Below, in pieces: positions 22,627 through 29,459 of a stretch of DNA of 64,000 nt; positions within the stretch are counted from its first letter, which is position 1, and the number at the start of each line of letters is the position of its first letter. Source of the stretch: Escherichia phage vB_EcoM_Alf5. The stretch lies in sequence record KX377933; one strand, written 5' to 3'. The notes below the pieces were generated by a model. The model was not told where the DNA came from. It worked only from the letters and a program-made list of their open reading frames with translations, and did no database searches. The translations under genes were made by a program, and so were the position numbers.

Positions 22627-24042
22627 ATGAGCGAGTTATTTAAACATGCACACCTTCATGCAGGTCGGACTGAAAATGGTGCTGTAAACCATACTTCATC
22701 AATGTCTGCTCTGGTAGACTTTTACAAAGCCGCTGGCTCAAGCCGTAGCAATGTAGAAATCTTACCAGACCTGTTCTACAAAGCTTTGCATGAGGATGTT
22801 GATGTTGCAGTTCGTATTTTACTGCATATGCGAGATGTACGAGAAGGTATGGGTGAGCGTAAAGCTTTCCGAACTGTTTTACTTCAAGCAATTGAAGATA
22901 AAGTTTTAGAGCCTACACAGGTTCTTCGCATTATGGATAAGATTGCAGAACTTGGTCGTTTTGATGACTTCAAAATCTTCGTAGGTACTCGTTTCGAGAC
23001 GGATGCCTTCAAACATTTAGAGGCAGCATTACTAGACCCTGCAACAGCAGGTTTGGCAGCTAAGTGGTTACCACGAGTCAAACCACGTCATAAGCAGTTT
23101 GTAAAACGTTTCTGCAAGTTTGCCAACTTGAGTGAGAAAGAGTACCGCACACTGTTATCTGCACTGTCTGATACGGTTGAGCAAAAAATCTCTGCTAATG
23201 AGTTTGGTAAGATTGACTACAGCAAGATTCCTTCACTCGCTGCTGCACGTTACCAAAAGCTCTTTAACCGCAAAGATGGAGAACGTTACAAAGCTTACAT
23301 CGAATCACTCTCAAAGGGTGAGTCTAAGATTAACGCTGGTGCTGTTTATCCATACGATGTGATTAAGTCTATCAAGCATGGTAATGCAGATGTTGCCAAT
23401 GAGCAGTGGAAAGCACTACCAAACTGGATGGCAGAAGGTGAGAACATCTTGTGTATGACTGATGTTTCAAGCTCAATGTCTTGGGTGAATCTTGGTTCAA
23501 TCACTGCCCTTGATATTGGTGTATCACTTGCCTTGTATGTAGCAGAACGCAATACAGGTTGCTTTAAGGATGAGTTGATGGTTTATTCAACAAACCCTCA
23601 CTTCATTGAACTGAGTGGTGATTTACGAAACCGTCATCGTCAGGTGATGCGACACGTTGAATATGGCTCAACTAACTTACAGGCAGCTTTTGACCGCATT
23701 CTTGAGGTAGGTAAAAGAAACAACTTGACTCAGAAAGATATGCCAAGTAAGCTTATCATCTTCTCTGATATGGAGTTCAATCAGGTTGATGGAGCTAATG
23801 GTCGTACAAACTTTGAAGCAATTCAGAGTAAGTACAAAAAAGCTGGATATGAGATGCCACAACTGGTATTCTGGTACTTAGCAAACCGTAATGGTACTTG
23901 CGAAGTGTCTGTTAAGGATAACGGTGTAGCAATGGTATCTGGTTTCTCTCCAGCCACTTTAAAAGCTTTGCTTGGTGGTGAGAAGTTTGACCCAATCAGT
24001 GTAATGCTCAAAGCAGTAATGATTGACCGTTACATCTGGTAA
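22627..24042 (+). CDS. Ro60/Rsr-like protein (TROVE-like N-terminal region plus vWA domain with MIDAS)
   Basis: 471 aa; LCMTDVSSSM (DxSxS), downstream GSTNL and IIFSDMEF fit a vWA MIDAS; ERKAFRTVL resembles Ro60 TROVE as recalled. Confidence 0.55.
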   Translation: MSELFKHAHLHAGRTENGAVNHTSSMSALVDFYKAAGSSRSNVEILPDLFYKALHEDVDVAVRILLHMRDVREGMGERKAFRTVLLQAIEDKVLEPTQVLRIMDKIAELGRFDDFKIFVGTRFETDAFKHLEAALLDPATAGLAAKWLPRVKPRHKQFVKRFCKFANLSEKEYRTLLSALSDTVEQKISANEFGKIDYSKIPSLAAARYQKLFNRKDGERYKAYIESLSKGESKINAGAVYPYDVIKSIKHGNADVANEQWKALPNWMAEGENILCMTDVSSSMSWVNLGSITALDIGVSLALYVAERNTGCFKDELMVYSTNPHFIELSGDLRNRHRQVMRHVEYGSTNLQAAFDRILEVGKRNNLTQKDMPSKLIIFSDMEFNQVDGANGRTNFEAIQSKYKKAGYEMPQLVFWYLANRNGTCEVSVKDNGVAMVSGFSPATLKALLGGEKFDPISVMLKAVMIDRYIW

Positions 24043-24056
24043 AAAGTTTTAAAAAG

Positions 24057-24095
24057 GGTATTGACAATGTGTTTGATACCCTTTAATATGTTCTA
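24057..24095 (+). promoter_or_regulatory. sigma70-like promoter upstream of tRNA island
   Basis: TTGACA, 17-bp spacer, TAATAT. Confidence 0.45.
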
Positions 24096-24207: not shown

Positions 24208-24284
24208 CTCTGTTTAGCTCAGCTTGGTAGAGCGTTCCGTTTGGGGCGGTAAGGCCGGAGGTTCAAGTCCTCCAACAGAGACCA
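24208..24284 (+). tRNA. tRNA, anticodon TGG (Pro)
   Basis: 7-bp acceptor ctctgtt/aacagag, D-stem gctc/gagc, T-arm ggagg-ttcaagt-cctcc, encoded CCA. Confidence 0.55.
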
Positions 24285-24291
24285 AATTAAT

Positions 24292-24369
24292 GTTCCAGTA
24301 GACAAAATGGTAAAGTCACCACTCTTTCAAAGTGGATATTTGAGGGTTCAAATCCCTTCTGGAACGCCA
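24292..24369 (+). tRNA. tRNA, anticodon TTC (Glu)
   Basis: acceptor gttccag/ctggaac, anticodon arm ccact-ctttcaa-agtgg, T-loop ttcaaat, CCA. Confidence 0.6.
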
Positions 24370-24375
24370 GTTTTG

Positions 24376-24452
24376 ACAGAAGACCAATTACAGCAAACTT
24401 AATCTACTCATCTGACACGAAATCGGACAAAGAAGATATTTGGTCTGGTCAT
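24376..24452 (+). ncRNA. repeat module A: conserved stem-forming motif pair
   Basis: agaccaa (24381-87) pairs with ttggtct (24440-46); shared flanks acagaagacc and ggtctggt. Confidence 0.35.
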
Positions 24453-24459
24453 TAAGAAT

Positions 24460-24536
24460 TGCGGGTATAGAGAAAGGGCGTCTCACATGTCTCATTAGCA
24501 TGGTATCGGCAGGTTCGACTCCTGCACCCGCCTCCA
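24460..24536 (+). tRNA. tRNA, anticodon CAT (Met)
   Basis: D-stem gaga/tctc, anticodon arm catgt-ctcatta-gcatg, T-arm gcagg-ttcgact-cctgc; 1:72 appears unpaired. Confidence 0.5.
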
Positions 24537-24541
24537 AATTT

Positions 24542-24610
24542 ACAGAAGACCGTTTACAGCAATATTTATTAAATTTTTAGCGGAAAAATTGAAAGATACG
24601 GTCTGGTAAT
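24542..24610 (+). ncRNA. repeat module B
   Basis: agaccgt (24547-53) pairs with acggtct (24598-604); same acagaagacc...ttacagcaa / ggtctggt flanks. Confidence 0.35.
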
Positions 24611-24619
24611 ACTAAACAT

Positions 24620-24696
24620 GGTTAGGAAGCACATAAGGTATGTGCGGTCGCCTGTTAAGCGAATGGCACAGGGTTCGAATCCCTGACTAACCGCCA
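24620..24696 (+). tRNA. tRNA, anticodon GTT (Asn)
   Basis: D-stem gcac/gtgc, anticodon loop ctgttaa, T-arm caggg-ttcgaat-ccctg, CCA. Confidence 0.55.
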
Positions 24697-24765
24697 AATT
24701 TAGGAGAGAAGCGATTGCTCACCGATTTGTAAGGTGCAAGTCCTTAGCCTGAATAGAAATTAAAT

Positions 24766-24853
24766 GTGTCGTTATCCCGTAGATGGTAGCGGTGGGGACT
24801 GTAAATCCCTTGTCATTGAGACTCGGTAGGTTCGACTCCTACACGGCACACCA
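24766..24853 (+). tRNA. tRNA, anticodon GTA (Tyr), long variable arm
   Basis: acceptor gtgtcgt/acggcac, anticodon loop ctgtaaa, 15-nt variable arm, T-arm gtagg-ttcgact-cctac. Confidence 0.6.
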
Positions 24854-24858
24854 ATAAA

Positions 24859-24936
24859 GGTTATGTAGTTTAATTTGGTTAAAATACTCCCCTGTCACGG
24901 GAGATGATGAGGGTTCAAATCCCTTCGTAGCCGCCA
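24859..24936 (+). tRNA. tRNA, anticodon GTC (Asp)
   Basis: anticodon arm ctccc-ctgtcac-gggag, T-loop ttcaaat, CCA. Confidence 0.6.
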
Positions 24937-24963
24937 ATTTTGAGAGGACTATTTAGCCCCTCC

Positions 24964-24995
24964 CTTAAAGAGTTCTTACGAGTATTCTTTAAAGG
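24964..24995 (+). promoter_or_regulatory. hairpin with conserved loop GTTCTTACGAGTAT
   Basis: cttaaagag-gttcttacgagtat-tctttaaag; a second copy with the same loop occurs at 28346-28377. Confidence 0.4.
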
Positions 24996-24996
24996 A

Positions 24997-25072
24997 GCAG
25001 AAGACCAAATTCAGCAAGAACGTATGAAATTTCAAGCCAATTTAATTTTGAAAATTTAAACTTGGTCTGGCT
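24997..25072 (+). ncRNA. repeat module C
   Basis: agaccaa (25002-08) pairs with ttggtct (25062-68); degenerate copy of modules A/B. Confidence 0.3.
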
Positions 25073-25081
25073 CAACAAATT

Positions 25082-25218
25082 TACAGAAGACCGTTTACAG
25101 CAAAACTTAAACAATCTATTTCTCCGGTAAAGAAAAGGCGAAGGTTCGATTCCTTCACTCGGCAGATGTCGAGTTGGTGTAATGGTAGCACTTAAGATGA
25201 TAAACAACGGTCTGGTAA
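25082..25218 (+). ncRNA. candidate Y RNA-like ncRNA with permuted tRNA-like domain
   Basis: 8-bp stem agaccgtt (25088-95) / aacggtct (25206-13) encloses T-arm gaagg-ttcgatt-ccttc, hairpin actcggc-agat-gtcgagt and D-arm gtgt-aatggta-gcac. Confidence 0.45.
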
Positions 25219-25358
25219 TTATCTTTGTAGATAAGTTATTAAGCTTACCTGTGAGTATGCGACCACAAAGGGTGAAAGGGTAAATTCTAGATTTAAACCC
25301 AAAAAGGCACATCGCTACAGACCTTAAGCAAGTCTGGGTAGCTTATCTACAAAGATAA
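25219..25358 (+). repeat. 17-bp perfect inverted repeat enclosing ~105 nt
   Basis: ttatctttgtagataag (25219-35) and cttatctacaaagataa (25342-58) are exact reverse complements. Confidence 0.6.
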
Positions 25359-25364
25359 TTTAAT

Positions 25365-25440
25365 GGAAGTGTAGCAGAATGGTGATGCGGCAGACTTTTA
25401 ATCTGACAGGCGATGGGTTCGAATCCCTCCACTTCTACCA
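25365..25440 (+). tRNA. tRNA, anticodon TTT (Lys)
   Basis: acceptor ggaagtg/cacttct, anticodon arm (g)caga-cttttaa-tctg, T-loop ttcgaat, CCA. Confidence 0.5.
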
Positions 25441-25444
25441 ATAT

Positions 25445-25521
25445 GGTTCAGTCGCAGATAAGGTAATGCAAGGGTCTCATAAGCCCTATGAATGTGGGTT
25501 CGATTCCCATCTGAACCTCCA
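25445..25521 (+). tRNA. tRNA, anticodon CAT (Met or Ile2)
   Basis: acceptor ggttcag/ctgaacc, anticodon arm agggt-ctcataa-gccct, T-loop ttcgatt, CCA. Confidence 0.5.
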
Positions 25522-25598
25522 AGCTGGTATAGTTAAGAAGGTTATAACACTCCCCTGATAAGGGAACATCGGTGGTTCGATTCCACCTACCAGTACCA
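25522..25598 (+). tRNA. tRNA, anticodon GAT (Ile)
   Basis: D-stem gtta/taac, anticodon loop ctgataa, T-arm ggtgg-ttcgatt-ccacc, CCA. Confidence 0.55.
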
Positions 25599-25606
25599 AT
25601 TTCAAT

Positions 25607-25645
25607 AAAGTTGTTGACATTGAGATGTGACTACTTTATAGTAAC
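25607..25645 (+). promoter_or_regulatory. sigma70-like promoter inside tRNA island
   Basis: aaagTTGTTGACA, 17-bp spacer, TATAGT. Confidence 0.45.
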
Positions 25646-25846
25646 CTTAGTTTTCGTTGCGTAGCGTCTATTTTGCAAATTTAAAATAAATGCAAACGAC
25701 AATGTTTTTCTGGCAGTAGCTTGATAGGCTAAACACCAGTGAGGTCTTCCAATCCCTCATCAAAGAATTTGGCGTACTAGCCCACGGTATGATTAATAAG
25801 GTGGGCATCTTTAAGGGCTTTCTAAGAGAGTCTTTAAAGATAATTA

Positions 25847-25928
25847 CGGGGCGTATCTCAGCGGTCTTCTAAACCGCCGTTAACCGAGTAAGTGGAGTAT
25901 GCGGGTTCGAGTCCTGCCGCCTCGACCA
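25847..25928 (+). tRNA. atypical tRNA-like element, anticodon-like loop TCT (Arg?)
   Basis: 7-bp acceptor cggggcg/cgcctcg and T-arm present, perfect hairpin gcggt-cttctaa-accgc, but no canonical D-arm; 23 nt before T-arm. Confidence 0.3.
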
Positions 25929-25942
25929 ATTTTGGAGAAATC

Positions 25943-26290
25943 ATGAAAACTTGTATTAGGTGCAAACTTAGCAAGGATGAAAATGATTTCTACATGAAAG
26001 ATGGTAGGAGGACTCATTCATACTGTAAAAAGTGTGTTAATGAGCAAACCATAGAAAGACAAAGAGCACTTAAACTCTCAGCTATTGAGTACAAAGGTGG
26101 GGTTTGTCATGATTGTGGTAAAAAGTATCATCCAGCAGTGTATGACTTCCATCATTTGAATCCTTCAGATAAAGATTTTAACATTGGTCATAGGAAAAGC
26201 CTTAAGTTCTCTCAAGAACTAAAAGATGAACTTGACAAATGTGTTTTGCTATGTTCAAATTGCCATAGGGTAAGACATGCAAAGTATTAG
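25943..26290 (+). CDS. HNH homing endonuclease
   Basis: CxxC...HHLNPSDKDFNIGH...CSNCH motifs; ATG at 25943 with GGAG RBS; track start 25892 lies inside the tRNA-like element. Confidence 0.65.
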   Translation: MKTCIRCKLSKDENDFYMKDGRRTHSYCKKCVNEQTIERQRALKLSAIEYKGGVCHDCGKKYHPAVYDFHHLNPSDKDFNIGHRKSLKFSQELKDELDKCVLLCSNCHRVRHAKY

Positions 26291-26427
26291 TTAGCAGATT
26301 ACTTAGACGACCTTAGCGGGTCTTCCTGTAGGGAGGTGGTCTGTATCTCATGTTTTCCAGAACATGTAAATAATCTGAGAAGGGGCTTTACAGTGTTGAG
26401 ATAATACGGTAAGCTTCGAATTATAGT

Positions 26428-26510
26428 ATGGGACGATGTTAAGACTCTAAGGCATGAGCAACGGCCTCCAAAACCGTTTCAAAGGGGTTCAACTCCTCCG
26501 TCCCATGCCA
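26428..26510 (+). tRNA. atypical tRNA, anticodon CCA (Trp?) with ~7 extra nt between acceptor and D-arm
   Basis: perfect acceptor atgggac/gtcccat, anticodon arm acggc-ctccaaa-accgt, T-loop ttcaact, CCA. Confidence 0.4.
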
Positions 26511-26523
26511 AAGTCTTATTAGG

Positions 26524-26611
26524 GGTAGGTAGCGGCTAATGGTAGCCAAACTGTCTTGAAAACAGTTGCCACTGTAGAGATACGGTGAGGGTTCGACTCC
26601 TTTACTTACCG
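26524..26611 (+). tRNA. tRNA, anticodon TGA (Ser), long variable arm
   Basis: anticodon arm actgt-cttgaaa-acagt, ~20-nt variable arm, T-arm gaggg-ttcgact-ccttt; no encoded CCA. Confidence 0.55.
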
Positions 26612-26868
26612 CCTAATAAGATTTAAAGCCAAGCTTCATTCGGATGTCGCTTTGGTATCCCGCGTGTATTGTCGTACACACTGATAAAACACCTAGTAGG
26701 TGTCACGGAGAAGAGATAATATCAAGCTCTCCAAAGGTTCTAGTCACCGGATTAAACAAGACTATGCAAAGACCTTTTTAGGTCTTTTTAGAGGGCTTCT
26801 AAGGTTATTACAGCTTGTTGTGGAACCTTGTTGCTTAGGTTCTTAGAAGTTCTCTAAAAAGATTTAAT

Positions 26869-26946
26869 GGGAGATTGACGGTAATTGGTAAACCTACCAT
26901 CCTTAGAAGTTGGTGTTTGAGGGTTCGAATCCCTTGTCTCCTACCA
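26869..26946 (+). tRNA. class-I tRNA, anticodon TAG (Leu by anticodon)
   Basis: acceptor gggagat/gtctcct, anticodon arm ccatc-cttagaa-gttgg, 5-nt variable loop, T-loop ttcgaat, A73, CCA. Confidence 0.45.
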
Positions 26947-26953
26947 AATTAAT

Positions 26954-27029
26954 GCAGGTGTAGCAAAATGGTTATGCGGCTGACTCTTAATCAGTAAGAC
27001 GACGGGTTCAATTCCCTCCACCTGTACCA
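26954..27029 (+). tRNA. tRNA, anticodon CTT (Lys)
   Basis: anticodon arm (g)ctga-ctcttaa-tcag(t), T-loop ttcaatt, CCA. Confidence 0.5.
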
Positions 27030-27034
27030 AAAAT

Positions 27035-27110
27035 GGGGTCATAGTTTATATGGTTAAAATTCGAGTTTTGCAAACTTGGGAACTGAGTTCAATTCTCAGT
27101 GACTCCACCA
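27035..27110 (+). tRNA. tRNA, anticodon TGC (Ala)
   Basis: acceptor ggggtca/tgactcc, anticodon arm cgagt-tttgcaa-acttg, T-arm ctgag-ttcaatt-ctcag, CCA. Confidence 0.6.
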
Positions 27111-27116
27111 ATTAGT

Positions 27117-27191
27117 GCATCCATAGTTTAAACGGGAAAATTACAGTCTTCCAAACTGAGGTTGAGGGTTCGATTCCCTCTGGATGCTCCA
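27117..27191 (+). tRNA. tRNA, anticodon TCC (Gly)
   Basis: perfect acceptor gcatcca/tggatgc, anticodon loop cttccaa, T-arm gaggg-ttcgatt-ccctc, CCA. Confidence 0.55.
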
Positions 27192-27197
27192 AATTAA

Positions 27198-27274
27198 TGC
27201 TCCTATCGTATAATCGGCTATTACGGTTGCCTTGTAAGCAACTTATCAGGGTTCGAATCCTTGTGGGAGCACCA
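27198..27274 (+). tRNA. tRNA, anticodon TGT (Thr)
   Basis: anticodon arm gttgc-cttgtaa-gcaac, T-loop ttcgaat, CCA. Confidence 0.6.
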
Positions 27275-27275
27275 A

Positions 27276-27368
27276 TTCAGAGGTCAAGTGAAAGACCGCT
27301 GGTGTCAACTGAAGACCGTAACAAATTCCACGGAGTTGAGTTAGCGGCACAACTTCAGACCTCTTTCA
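27276..27368 (+). ncRNA. structured non-tRNA spacer with paired repeat segments
   Basis: agaggtc/gacctct and ctgaag/cttcag complementarities; two GAAGACCG motifs. Confidence 0.3.
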
Positions 27369-27369
27369 C

Positions 27370-27444
27370 ACTCGCTTAGTTTATATGGTAAAACATCACC
27401 CTTACAAGATGAAGAAAAAGGTTCAAGTCCTTTAGTGAGTACCA
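27370..27444 (+). tRNA. tRNA, anticodon TAC (Val)
   Basis: D-stem gttt/aaac, anticodon arm tcacc-cttacaa-gatga (one mismatch), T-arm aaagg-ttcaagt-ccttt, CCA. Confidence 0.55.
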
Positions 27445-27445
27445 T

Positions 27446-27523
27446 GTTCCAGTATCCCAATTGGCAGAGGATGCAAGCTCAAACCTTGTATTAGTGACGG
27501 TTCGAATCCGTCTTGGAACACCA
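27446..27523 (+). tRNA. class-I tRNA, anticodon CAA (Leu by anticodon)
   Basis: acceptor gttccag/ttggaac, anticodon arm gcaag-ctcaaac-cttgt, short variable loop, T-arm gacgg-ttcgaat-ccgtc, A73, CCA. Confidence 0.5.
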
Positions 27524-27541
27524 ATTTAAAGAGGCTATTTA

Positions 27542-28099
27542 ATGAGATATTTGAAGTACGCTTCATGGATTTTCTTAGCTTTACTAGACCCAATTGCAGC
27601 AATCCTAGCAGTTATTTTAGCACCTTTCGTAGTTCCATTCTACAGTGAGAAGAAAGGACATCTACCTTTTGGATTCAGATGGATGGAGACATATGACAAC
27701 CCAATTGATGGTGATGAAGGTCACGTTAAAAGATGGGCTAAGATTAGAAAGATTGGTAAGCTGGGTGTCTACATGCAGAGAGTCGGATGGCTCTGGAGAA
27801 ACAAAGCTTATAACTTCTCTTACCATGTATTAGGAAGAGATGTAAAAGATGTTACTAAGTGGAAAGGTAATATCAACGTAAGTTCTGACCCCGAAGATAA
27901 TCAGACAGGTTATCTCCTAATGTGGAACAACAATGCTTGGGGATTATTCGCTTTTATTCCGTCAATTAAAGTCTTTGGTAAACAGTTTTACTGGAGAATT
28001 TATGTTGGATGGAAACTAAAAAGTGTTGTCCCAGAAGAAAGAGCATTCTCAAGGGAAAGAGTTATGTTGGCATTCTTTATTCATCCACTGAGAAAGTAA
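27542..28099 (+). CDS. hypothetical membrane protein inside tRNA island
   Basis: 185-aa ORF; N-terminal hydrophobic segment IFLALLDPIAAILAVILAPFVVPF; Trp-rich; AGAGG RBS. Confidence 0.5.
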   Translation: MRYLKYASWIFLALLDPIAAILAVILAPFVVPFYSEKKGHLPFGFRWMETYDNPIDGDEGHVKRWAKIRKIGKLGVYMQRVGWLWRNKAYNFSYHVLGRDVKDVTKWKGNINVSSDPEDNQTGYLLMWNNNAWGLFAFIPSIKVFGKQFYWRIYVGWKLKSVVPEERAFSRERVMLAFFIHPLRK

Positions 28100-28107
28100 A
28101 GATTTAA

Positions 28108-28183
28108 AGGGGATTAGTTTACAAGGTTAAAACCTCGGTCTTTGAAATCGAAGAAGTTGGTTCAATTCCAACATCCCCCGCCA
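28108..28183 (+). tRNA. tRNA, anticodon TTG (Gln)
   Basis: D-stem gttt/aaac, anticodon arm tcggt-ctttgaa-atcga, T-arm gttgg-ttcaatt-ccaac, CCA; 1:72 A-C mismatch. Confidence 0.55.
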
Positions 28184-28185
28184 AT

Positions 28186-28264
28186 GCTCCATTACTCCAA
28201 TTGGCAGAGAGGCCAGACTTAAAATCTGTGTTATGTATCGGTTCGAATCCGATATGGAGTACCA
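28186..28264 (+). tRNA. class-I tRNA, anticodon TAA (Leu by anticodon)
   Basis: acceptor gctccat/atggagt, anticodon arm (c)caga-cttaaaa-tctg, T-arm atcgg-ttcgaat-ccgat, A73, CCA. Confidence 0.45.
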
Positions 28265-28269
28265 ATTTT

Positions 28270-28345
28270 AGCGGTATAGCATAACTGGCAATGCAGCAGT
28301 CTCTGAAGCTGTCCTATTAAGGTTCAAATCCTTATGCCGCTGCCA
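28270..28345 (+). tRNA. tRNA, anticodon CTG (Gln)
   Basis: D-stem gcat/atgc, anticodon arm gcagt-ctctgaa-gctgt, T-arm taagg-ttcaaat-cctta, CCA. Confidence 0.55.
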
Positions 28346-28377
28346 CTTCTAAGGGTTCTTACGAGAATCCTTAAATG
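28346..28377 (+). promoter_or_regulatory. second copy of hairpin with loop GTTCTTACGAGAAT
   Basis: ctaagg-gttcttacgagaat-ccttaa directly after tRNA 3' end. Confidence 0.4.
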
Positions 28378-28452
28378 TGGCCTTATCATAAATGGTAATG
28401 ACCCATGCTGTGAACATGGTCTATACGGGTTCGACTCCCGTAGGTCACCCCA
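28377..28452 (+). tRNA. tRNA, anticodon GTG (His)
   Basis: anticodon arm ccatg-ctgtgaa-catgg, T-arm acggg-ttcgact-cccgt, C73, CCA. Confidence 0.6.
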
Positions 28453-28457
28453 ATTTA

Positions 28458-28534
28458 TAGTCCAAGTAGCTTATATGGTTAAAGCGCGTGTCTGAAAAAC
28501 ATGAGAAGAGGGTTCAAATCCCACTGGACTACCA
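28458..28534 (+). tRNA. tRNA, anticodon GAA (Phe)
   Basis: D-stem gctt/aagc, anticodon arm cgtgt-ctgaaaa-acatg, T-loop ttcaaat; acceptor register ambiguous by 2 nt. Confidence 0.5.
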
Positions 28535-28550
28535 ATTTCAAAGGTGCTTA

Positions 28551-29285
28551 ATGAAAGAGATGACAGAACAAGGTAAGGAGATTTTTAATCTCTTAAAAAC
28601 CGGTAAAGGGTTTTCTAACCCACTTATTACTGGTGCAGCAGTTCTCGGTGGAACCGTAGCTGCCTCTACATCACTTGTAAGCTCTATTAGCTCTGTAACA
28701 GACCCTACAATGAAGGAGAAGCTTGTTGCTGCTGGACTTACAACAGTCCTTCTAAACAGCTTTACAACAAGCCTGACAAGCACTACAGCAACTACTAAGA
28801 CCCTAACAGACTATGGTCAAAAGTCTATTGATGAGTTTTCATCACGTATGCAGGTAGCAAAGGGTTATTCCAATGTTATGGGTGCAGCAGGAGAACAAGT
28901 TGGTTGTACACCATTCAGTGGTATTATGGGTGTTGCTACAGAGTATGGTCAAAAAGCTATTGACATGATTAACAGCACACTAGACAGTGTTAACGGTGTG
29001 TTAAGTGACTTACAAGACGCTATTGATAAGGGTCTTGATACTGTTTCTGATTTAGCTAATCAGGCTGTTAGTAAGATTAATGAAGGTATCTCAAAGATTA
29101 CAGCTTATGCAGATGAAGTTGTGCAGATGATTGAAGAAGAAGCTGCCCTTATTACAGAGTACCTTAAAACTAATATCAATGGGTTCTTAGCAGGTATCTT
29201 ACCAGACTGGTTTGATGATGCTTGTAAAACTGGTGTGATTGATACTATTGCAACACCAGAAATGAAGAGCGCATTACAGAAATAA
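28551..29285 (+). CDS. hypothetical Ser/Thr-rich protein inside tRNA island
   Basis: ATG at 28551 after AAAGG RBS; track start 28488 lies inside the preceding tRNA. Confidence 0.5.
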   Translation: MKEMTEQGKEIFNLLKTGKGFSNPLITGAAVLGGTVAASTSLVSSISSVTDPTMKEKLVAAGLTTVLLNSFTTSLTSTTATTKTLTDYGQKSIDEFSSRMQVAKGYSNVMGAAGEQVGCTPFSGIMGVATEYGQKAIDMINSTLDSVNGVLSDLQDAIDKGLDTVSDLANQAVSKINEGISKITAYADEVVQMIEEEAALITEYLKTNINGFLAGILPDWFDDACKTGVIDTIATPEMKSALQK

Positions 29286-29286
29286 C

Positions 29287-29379
29287 GGAAGATTAACCCT
29301 AAAAGGTAAGGGAGCAGTTTGCTAAACTGCCAGTAGCTGAGAAATCGGTGTACCAGTTCAAGTCTGGTATCTTCCTCCA
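29287..29379 (+). tRNA. tRNA, anticodon GCT (Ser), long variable arm
   Basis: perfect acceptor ggaagat/atcttcc, anticodon arm gcagt-ttgctaa-actgc, ~21-nt variable arm, T-arm accag-ttcaagt-ctggt, CCA. Confidence 0.6.
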
Positions 29380-29383
29380 ATTT

Positions 29384-29459
29384 GAATCCGTGACAGAAAT
29401 GGATATGTGCCTGTCTGCAAAACAGGTTTATAAGGGTTCAAGTCCCTTCGGATTCTCCA
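29384..29459 (+). tRNA. tRNA, anticodon GCA (Cys)
   Basis: perfect acceptor gaatccg/cggattc, anticodon arm cctgt-ctgcaaa-acagg, T-arm aaggg-ttcaagt-ccctt, CCA. Confidence 0.6.

Follow-up and report, generated by a model that had tools for sequence, protein, structure and literature searches.

A Candidate Structured Noncoding RNA with a Long Terminal Helix in the tRNA Cluster of Felix O1-like Phages

Introduction

The partners of the Ro60 and Rsr proteins, namely the Y RNAs and the bacterial Y RNA YrlA, are RNAs of about 100-150 nt with paired ends, in which a long stem closes a large structured loop. The Ro60-binding motif is GNCGAAN0-1G in bacteria and a bulged helix of the form GGUCCGA in animals (PMC4201824). 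Another group of small RNAs is encoded in the tRNA cluster of phage T4, where the species 1 and species 2 RNAs (rnaC and rnaD), about 120-140 nt in length, lie on the tRNA strand directly beside tRNA. In its fold, rnaC resembles a tRNA at the T arm and the acceptor end, and it lacks a long terminal helix. Long helices that bracket an RNA are also familiar as RNase III processing stems, such as those of the rRNA operon and of the early-RNA sites of phage T7; substrates of this enzyme are about 20 bp or more in length.

Felix O1-like phages are widely used in Salmonella typing, diagnostics, and biocontrol. Existing annotation of their tRNA region consists of tRNAs and spurious small reading frames only. 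Here, we report a comparative analysis of an inverted repeat in this region, as it occurs in a 64,000-nucleotide stretch of the genome of Escherichia phage vB_EcoM_Alf5 (KX377933; hereafter, the window). We propose that 25217-25360 (+ strand) is probably a gene for a conserved structured noncoding RNA of about 145 nt, with the repeat as its terminal helix, P1, and weigh this reading against a role restricted to tRNA processing, against mimicry of tRNA-Lys(UUU), and against a passive insertion. We also examine the relationship of the element to a nearby gene for a protein with a predicted Ro60 fold.

Results and Discussion

An inverted repeat inside the tRNA cluster

The relevant region of the window is 99-100% identical to Felix O1-like phages (Felixounavirus), and the 166 bases around the inverted repeat match Salmonella phage FelixO1 (AF320576) exactly. 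The tRNA cluster comprises 24 tRNA genes at 24208-29459, all on the + strand, and the element is located inside it, on the same strand. A first-pass annotation of the window had placed the repeat between a permuted tRNA-like element and the next tRNA; this location is correct, the two neighbors being found at 25084-25215 and at 25365-25440 (tRNA-Lys(UUU)), respectively. The parts of the element and the adjoining tRNA, in order, are:

25217..25240, + strand: P1, 5' strand of the terminal helix, containing the earlier 17-mer 25219-25235 (repeat search, folds, covariation)
25245..25275, + strand: P2 region, with GAGUAUGCG at 25253-25261 (minimum-free-energy folds)
25278..25300, + strand: P3 hairpin, GGGUAAAUU-CUA-GAUUUAAACCC, with apical CUAG (folds and alignment)
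25318..25336, + strand: P5 hairpin, CAGAC-CUUAAGCAA-GUCUG, running straight into the 3' strand of P1
25337..25360, + strand: P1, 3' strand of the terminal helix, containing the earlier 17-mer 25342-25358
25365..25440, + strand: tRNA-Lys(UUU), 4 nt downstream of the end of P1

The two 17-mers that first drew attention to the locus, TTATCTTTGTAGATAAG (25219-25235) and CTTATCTACAAAGATAA (25342-25358), are indeed exact reverse complements, and they do enclose a segment, the length of which is 106 nt rather than the 105 nt originally given. Perfect pairing extends beyond the 17 bp to 19 bp (25217-25235/25342-25360), a repeat search returned 22 nt at 95% complementarity (25217-25238/25339-25360), and the minimum-free-energy fold contains a helix of 24 bp, including three G·U pairs, that is uninterrupted in the window (25217-25240/25337-25360). 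The folding energy of the 148-nt segment is -48.3 kcal/mol (z = -6.3), and none of 200 dinucleotide shuffles folds as well. When the whole 64-kb window was scanned, this repeat was the most complementary of all inverted repeats within 250 nt. The inverted repeat is real and lies far beyond chance expectation.

Three further features of the cluster were recorded: a weak HNH-endonuclease-like gene at 25943-26290 (Pfam HNH E = 0.0045, below the curated cut-off), weak, sub-threshold tmRNA-type Rfam matches at 25540-25845, and a 12-bp hairpin, CUCCCUUAAAGA...UCUUUAAAGGAG, at 24965-24997, in the interval between tRNA-Asp and the RNA module E3 (see below), that is nearly invariant in Felixounavirus and Mooglevirus.

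Nine sequence types among related phages

A blastn search with the interval from tRNA-Asp to tRNA-Lys as the query matched 254 phage records, and the element is covered in every Ounavirinae record among the matches listed. Felixounavirus, Mooglevirus, and Suspvirus carry two alleles, A and B, the interiors of which barely align; P1, the CUAG hairpin, and P5 are common to both. More distant relatives, traced via the upstream protein gene, added seven sequence types, for nine in all: C (locus L060), D (L063), E (L062, Yersinia phage vB_YenM_P778), F (L148), G (L149), H (L145), and I (L146). The upstream protein of these relatives is 63% to 53% identical to that of the window.

A terminal helix of 22-30 bp is present in all nine types (ten representatives), with 0-10 unpaired nucleotides in types other than that of the window; between types, sequence identity in the 5' arm of P1 is no more than 46-72%. 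The distance from P1 to tRNA-Lys(UUU) ranges from -1 to 10 nt in the same ten representatives, and the folds of all nine types have z-scores of -3.6 to -7.5 relative to shuffles. In types D and F, P1 contains two conserved internal loops between covarying helices, and in L149, the element fills the entire 157-nt spacer between tRNA-Ala and tRNA-Lys. On this comparison, the perfect stem is special to the Felix O1 lineage, and the conserved property is a long, often interrupted terminal helix of 22-30 bp.

Two loci in which the surroundings have been eroded are informative with respect to retention. In L060, the neighboring tRNA-like module E4 is missing and the element is kept. In phage ESCO45 (L150, 1480-1700), the element is flanked by deletions: upstream, tRNA-Asp and E3 are gone, together with most of E4; downstream, tRNA-Met, tRNA-Ile, and the 3' part of tRNA-Lys have been removed. 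The element between them is intact save for one substitution. Such retention is suggestive of selection, without amounting to proof.

In a KP13-16-like phage (L147, 7268-7405), an RNA of about 135 nt that combines three hairpins with a long terminal stem is positioned flush with tRNA-Lys(UUU). This RNA has no sequence similarity to the element and could be convergent or very diverged.

Secondary structure and covariation

The stems were evaluated on alignment A4, which consists of 21 distinct sequences of types A-C. In P1 (24 pairs), 98% of the cells are paired, nine pairs are changed on both sides, and there is a coordinated 1-bp deletion; in P5 (five pairs), all cells are paired and two pairs are changed on both sides; in P3, 85% of the cells are paired and one pair is changed on both sides. 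Over all stems, the values are 95% paired cells and 12 pairs changed on both sides, and none of 500 shuffles matched them. When, as a control, the 3' partners were slid by 1-3 columns, only 29-47% of the cells were paired. The alignment shows P1 to be under selection for pairing.

The interior hairpins differ between distant types. The P2 stem is UGUG/CACA in type A, GGGG/CCCC in type C, and GCCU/AGGC in types D, F, and H. Near P2, most types carry the motif G(A/G)GUA(U/G)GC, identified by eye from the type sequences, of which GAGUAUGCG is the copy in the window and GAGUGCC is the version in type B. The P3 hairpin is retained in types A and B, and its CUAG occurs in type C also; types D-I have other hairpins instead. 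P4 is weak and unconserved.

The internal cagac/gtctg hairpin of the first-pass annotation corresponds to P5 and is found at 25318-25336, with a 9-nt loop, CUUAAGCAA. Its stem takes the forms CAAACC/GGUUUG, CAGUC/GACUG, GUUC/GAAC, AAGUC/GACUU, and GAGAC/GUCUC in other types, with the loop staying near CYUWAGCAA throughout (variants CUUUAGUAA, CCUAUGCAA, and UUCUUGCACAA). An alternative extension of P5 (GCUAC/GUAGC) that would replace the inner end of P1 was rejected, given that type C favors the P1 pairing (GCUGU/ACAGC).

Relation to mobile elements, coding regions, and known RNA families

The terminal inverted repeats of 19-22 bp are what would be expected of a miniature inverted-repeat transposable element or of some other passive insertion, an origin that had been raised when the repeat was first noticed. 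Several observations argue against it. There is no target-site duplication, the flanks TCTGGT and TAATGG having no direct repeat in common; a search with the element covariance model, R1, found a single full copy in the window; blastn produced no matches in 5,426 complete E. coli genomes; and among the records listed from the 254 matching phages, no presence/absence polymorphism was seen, that is, no relative in which the element is absent at a clean junction. Moreover, the arms vary across genera by compensatory substitutions and the coordinated 1-bp deletion, which points to selection on pairing rather than on a transposase-binding sequence. We consider an insertion very unlikely. Another of the original suggestions, that the segment is an additional noncoding RNA, is supported by the conservation across genera, the compensatory changes in the stems, and the conserved loops.

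Protein coding was rejected: a minus-strand open frame of 117 codons is reduced in types B and C, to lengths of 61, 44, and 33 codons, and no open reading frame conserved across types was found. An intrinsic terminator, which would have a G+C-rich stem and then a run of U, was rejected likewise, the + strand scan showing no site here and the A/U-rich stem being followed by UAAUGG. Within 25217-25360, neither ARAGORN nor the Rfam tRNA model detects a tRNA, and there is no T or D arm. No family in Rfam 15 matches the element in the window at E <= 1 and, in the loci of six relatives, none matches over the element at E <= 0.5 among the matches listed; relaxed-threshold Rfam scans of the window region and of these six loci yielded tRNAs and chance matches only. 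No description of the element RNA was found in the literature on DUF2828, on Felix O1 transcriptomes, or on phage Ro-like RNAs. The RNA family appears to be undescribed, and the comparative support appears sufficient to recognize it as new.

Position next to tRNA-Lys(UUU) and the role of the terminal helix

The conserved set comprises P1, the P5 hairpin, and the two loop motifs and includes no reading frame. We favor the reading in which P1 closes a noncoding RNA that acts as such. Under this model, the RNA and the tRNAs would share a transcript that starts at promoter-like sites near 24061 and 24152; the terminator scan found no + strand terminator-like site between these positions and 25614. 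The flush position suggests that the element would be excised by the enzymes that mature the flanking tRNAs. At its 3' end, the element would finish with P1 and about 4 nt more once RNase P has cut at tRNA-Lys; at its 5' end, it directly adjoins the end of tRNA-Ala in one relative. Joining both ends, the helix of 22-30 bp should shield the RNA from 3' exonucleases and, in the Felix O1 lineage, P1 may be long and regular enough to be a substrate of RNase III as well. The single-stranded motifs, G(A/G)GUA(U/G)GC near P2 and CYUWAGCAA in the P5 loop, would bind a partner.

With its 24 bp, uninterrupted in the window, P1 is within the length range of RNase III substrates. As in the stems of the rRNA operon and the T7 early-RNA sites, a helix of at least 20 bp brackets RNA within a polycistronic, tRNA-bearing precursor, from which the element would be excised. 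It differs from these stems in that the helix of the distant types is broken by conserved internal loops and in that the bracketed RNA is small. A role of the stem in processing or stability, a regulated processing site having been among the original suggestions, is plausible and fits its position flush against tRNA-Lys.

Such a role could be the whole function. In this alternative, the effect of the element would be confined to the tRNA precursor in cis, where its hairpin would serve processing or stability, either as an RNase III site separating the upstream RNAs from the Lys-Met-Ile run or as a barrier to 3' exonucleases after the RNase P cut, and the interior would have no function of its own. 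A near-perfect helix of 24 bp that ends 4 nt before a tRNA is readily understood in this way. Furthermore, two more hairpins, alike in having a base AUCUUU.../...AAAGAU and a AAUUUAAU junction, are each placed ahead of the first tRNA in another run:

25806-25841: leader hairpin of 16 bp with AUCUUU/AAAGAU base, before an uncalled tRNA-like sequence at 25847-25925
26778..26867, + strand: second long hairpin, of about 27 bp, immediately preceding tRNA-Leu(UAG) and similar to P1 at the base of the stem

R1 weakly matches the latter hairpin (21.9 bits). The occurrence of hairpins with a similar stem base before other tRNAs favors a generic, cis-acting role of the stem, and such a role may well explain why P1 exists. 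It accounts less well for the interior: about 100 nt persist in all nine types, with a covarying P5 and two conserved loop motifs, whereas a plain hairpin would suffice, and in the other two leader hairpins the stem encloses only 3-38 nt. We therefore regard an exclusively cis-acting element as possible and as clearly less probable than a structured noncoding RNA.

The tRNA-Leu leader hairpin (26778-26867) is itself of some interest: its fold has z = -5.5, its stem covaries between phage types, and its loop contains a conserved UUGUUGCU. A kissing pair between this loop and the P5 loop (AGCAA/UUGCU) was considered and rejected. Only the invariant 5-nt core is complementary, and the 7-bp extension present in the window is lost in types B and C, so that there is no covariation. 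The tRNA-like sequence at 25847-25925 scores 31.7 bits with the Rfam tRNA model, is not called by ARAGORN, and carries the same GAGUAUGCG 9-mer at 25895.

The species 1 and species 2 RNAs of phage T4 share with the element its small size, its location in a phage tRNA cluster on the tRNA strand, and its place directly beside a tRNA. Unlike the element, rnaC lacks the long terminal helix; R1 finds no match in the T4 tRNA region (69500-74500), and the T4 region retrieved contains no DUF2828 gene. Given the lack of an R1 match and the different folds, these RNAs are the closest analogues of the element by context and are not its homologs.

The constant adjacency to tRNA-Lys(UUU) could also have a functional meaning. 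Host anticodon nucleases such as PrrC target tRNA-Lys. Read side by side, P5 and the anticodon arm of tRNA-Lys (CAGA-CUUUUAA-UCUG) are similar, and the element might thus serve as a decoy or mimic that occupies host nucleases cutting the anticodon loop. The details speak against this: the P5 loop has 9 nt rather than 7, and its variants are less like CUUUUAA; the P5 stem of L063 (GUUC/GAAC) fails to track the anticodon stem of the local tRNA-Lys (ACGGU/ACCGU); and the adjacency can be inherited gene order. A decoy function thus seems improbable, if less so than an insertion.

A Ro60-fold protein, Y-RNA-like modules, and a tRNA mimic

Upstream of the element, on the same strand, are a protein-coding gene and four copies, E1-E4, of an RNA module, located between tRNAs downstream of that gene:

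22627..24042, + strand: gene for a 471-aa DUF2828+DUF7788 protein (Pfam), predicted Ro60 fold
24375..25075, + strand: Y-RNA-like modules E1 (24382-24447), E2 (24548-24605), and E3 (25003-25069), by model R2
25084..25218, + strand: module E4, enclosing a permuted tRNA mimic, with YrlA-like domain order

The AlphaFold2 model of the DUF2828 protein has a pLDDT of 89.4 and a pTM of 0.89. In a Foldseek comparison of this model with the PDB, the best 11 matches are all Ro60, over the full length, including Xenopus Ro60, Deinococcus Rsr, and the Ro60 of Thermus phage phiLo. The protein is thus predicted with high confidence to adopt the Ro60 fold (Foldseek E = 4e-9, TM 0.64), a ring plus a von Willebrand A domain. 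A sequence search of solved PDB structures, Ro60 chains included, finds no relative, and, on the sequence level, the protein is not a detectable TROVE ortholog. By tblastn, the DUF2828 family is present in 708 phage records, in some of which it is annotated as 'Ro-like RNA binding protein'.

The modules have the form AA-G-N5 stem, NNN-CAGCAA, loop, stem', UG. Each copy opens with a short outer helix and AGAA, continues with a 6-bp helix, UUACAGCAA, and a variable part, and closes with the return strand, UG, and the outer return strand. The 6-bp helix differs in nearly every copy, with the flanking AA, the first G, CAGCAA, and UG being constant. A covariance model, R2, was built from 35 modules, and E1-E3 score 39.6-51.3 bits with it. 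In E4 (25084-25215; module copy 25089-25214), four domains are enclosed by the closing stem, in the order V hairpin, T arm, closed acceptor-like stem-loop, and D arm. This domain order is like that of YrlA, from which E4 differs in the lack of the GNCGAA motif.

Modules accompany the DUF2828 gene in unrelated phages. Klebsiella phage KP13-16 has five copies near the gene (L058, 5532-6105), and Aeromonas phage LAh_6 has six copies upstream of it, where there is no tRNA cluster in the vicinity. Across 75 diverse viral contigs with DUF2828, a strict pattern found 64 copies on the strand of the gene and four on the opposite strand. The E1-E4 RNAs are probably, indeed very likely, partners of the Ro-like protein. 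No description of these module RNAs was found in Rfam or in the literature searched.

Additional observations concern individual loci. Repeated modules are located next to the DUF2828 gene in L059 (2991-3958). In KP13-16 (L058, 6948-7068), a tRNA-Asp-like sequence contains a hairpin, AACUUCU-uaga-GAAGUUUUACAGCA, between the D arm and the anticodon arm; this hairpin is the CAGCAA module core, closed as a hairpin, in an otherwise unpermuted tRNA. Just downstream of the DUF2828 gene in L145 (6001-6063), the Rfam skipping-rope RNA is matched at 29.1 bits, below its gathering score of 36.7; for the window, no counterpart was reported.

Does the element belong to the Ro-like system?

In gross shape, the element is Y-RNA-like: its ends are paired, and a long stem closes a large structured loop. 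Relative to Y RNAs with paired ends, which span about 80-130 nt, the element, with its 24-bp terminal helix, is slightly longer than typical at 144 nt. As regards placement, Y RNAs are encoded within about 4 kb of a Ro60 ortholog and on its strand; the element lies 1.2 kb downstream of, and on the same strand as, a gene for a protein that has a predicted Ro60 fold and no sequence similarity to solved Ro60 chains. The differences lie in the details. There is no CGAA anywhere in 25217-25360 and no motif of the GNCGAAN0-1G or GGUCCGA type, and the T and D arms of the kind found in YrlA are missing from the element, such a domain being present in its neighbor E4.

Other features connect the element with the modules. 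The two share a strand and probably a transcript. The P5 loop and the modules have AGCAA in common, with the following UG shared in types A, B, C, and G, and in KP13-16, an inverted repeat of 25 bp surrounds the first module. Membership of the element in the CAGCAA-module family was rejected on its mismatch to R2, which produces no match in 25217-25360 at E <= 10 with filters off. The possibility that the 5' strand of P1 in L063 (UUUGC-AAAG-AAUCUU-UCAGCAU) is the 5' half of a module was likewise dismissed, because L148 pairs CCUGUA/UACAGG at this place, and the CAGCA of L063 is simply helix.

R1 has no matches in the 75 diverse DUF2828 loci, which indicates that the element follows the Ounavirinae-like lineage and not the Ro-like gene; a regular-expression scan of DUF2828 loci for P5-like hairpins gave chance-like matches only. 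The co-occurrence of the element with the Ro-like gene may be plain synteny.

Because the element fails the module covariance model, a Ro-like partner is here hypothesized rather than assigned. If the RNA has a protein partner, the most plausible candidate is the Ro60-like DUF2828 protein, encoded 1.2 kb upstream, and we make this suggestion tentatively. More speculative still is a wider scheme, in which the element represents a new class of phage RNA and, together with the DUF2828 protein, the CAGCAA modules, and the tRNA mimic, would form a ribonucleoprotein for tRNA quality control, tRNA repair, or defense against host systems that cleave tRNA, with the part played by the element being linked to tRNA-Lys(UUU).

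Conclusions

The tRNA region of Felix O1-like phages appears to hold a conserved structured RNA in an operon with a protein of predicted Ro60 fold, Y-RNA-like modules, and a tRNA mimic. Should RNA and protein cooperate, this locus would offer a tractable system, in E. coli and Salmonella, for the function of phage Ro-like ribonucleoproteins and would also address why phages place such ribonucleoproteins beside tRNA genes. Should the RNA serve processing or stability alone, it would still document how long phage tRNA precursors are punctuated.
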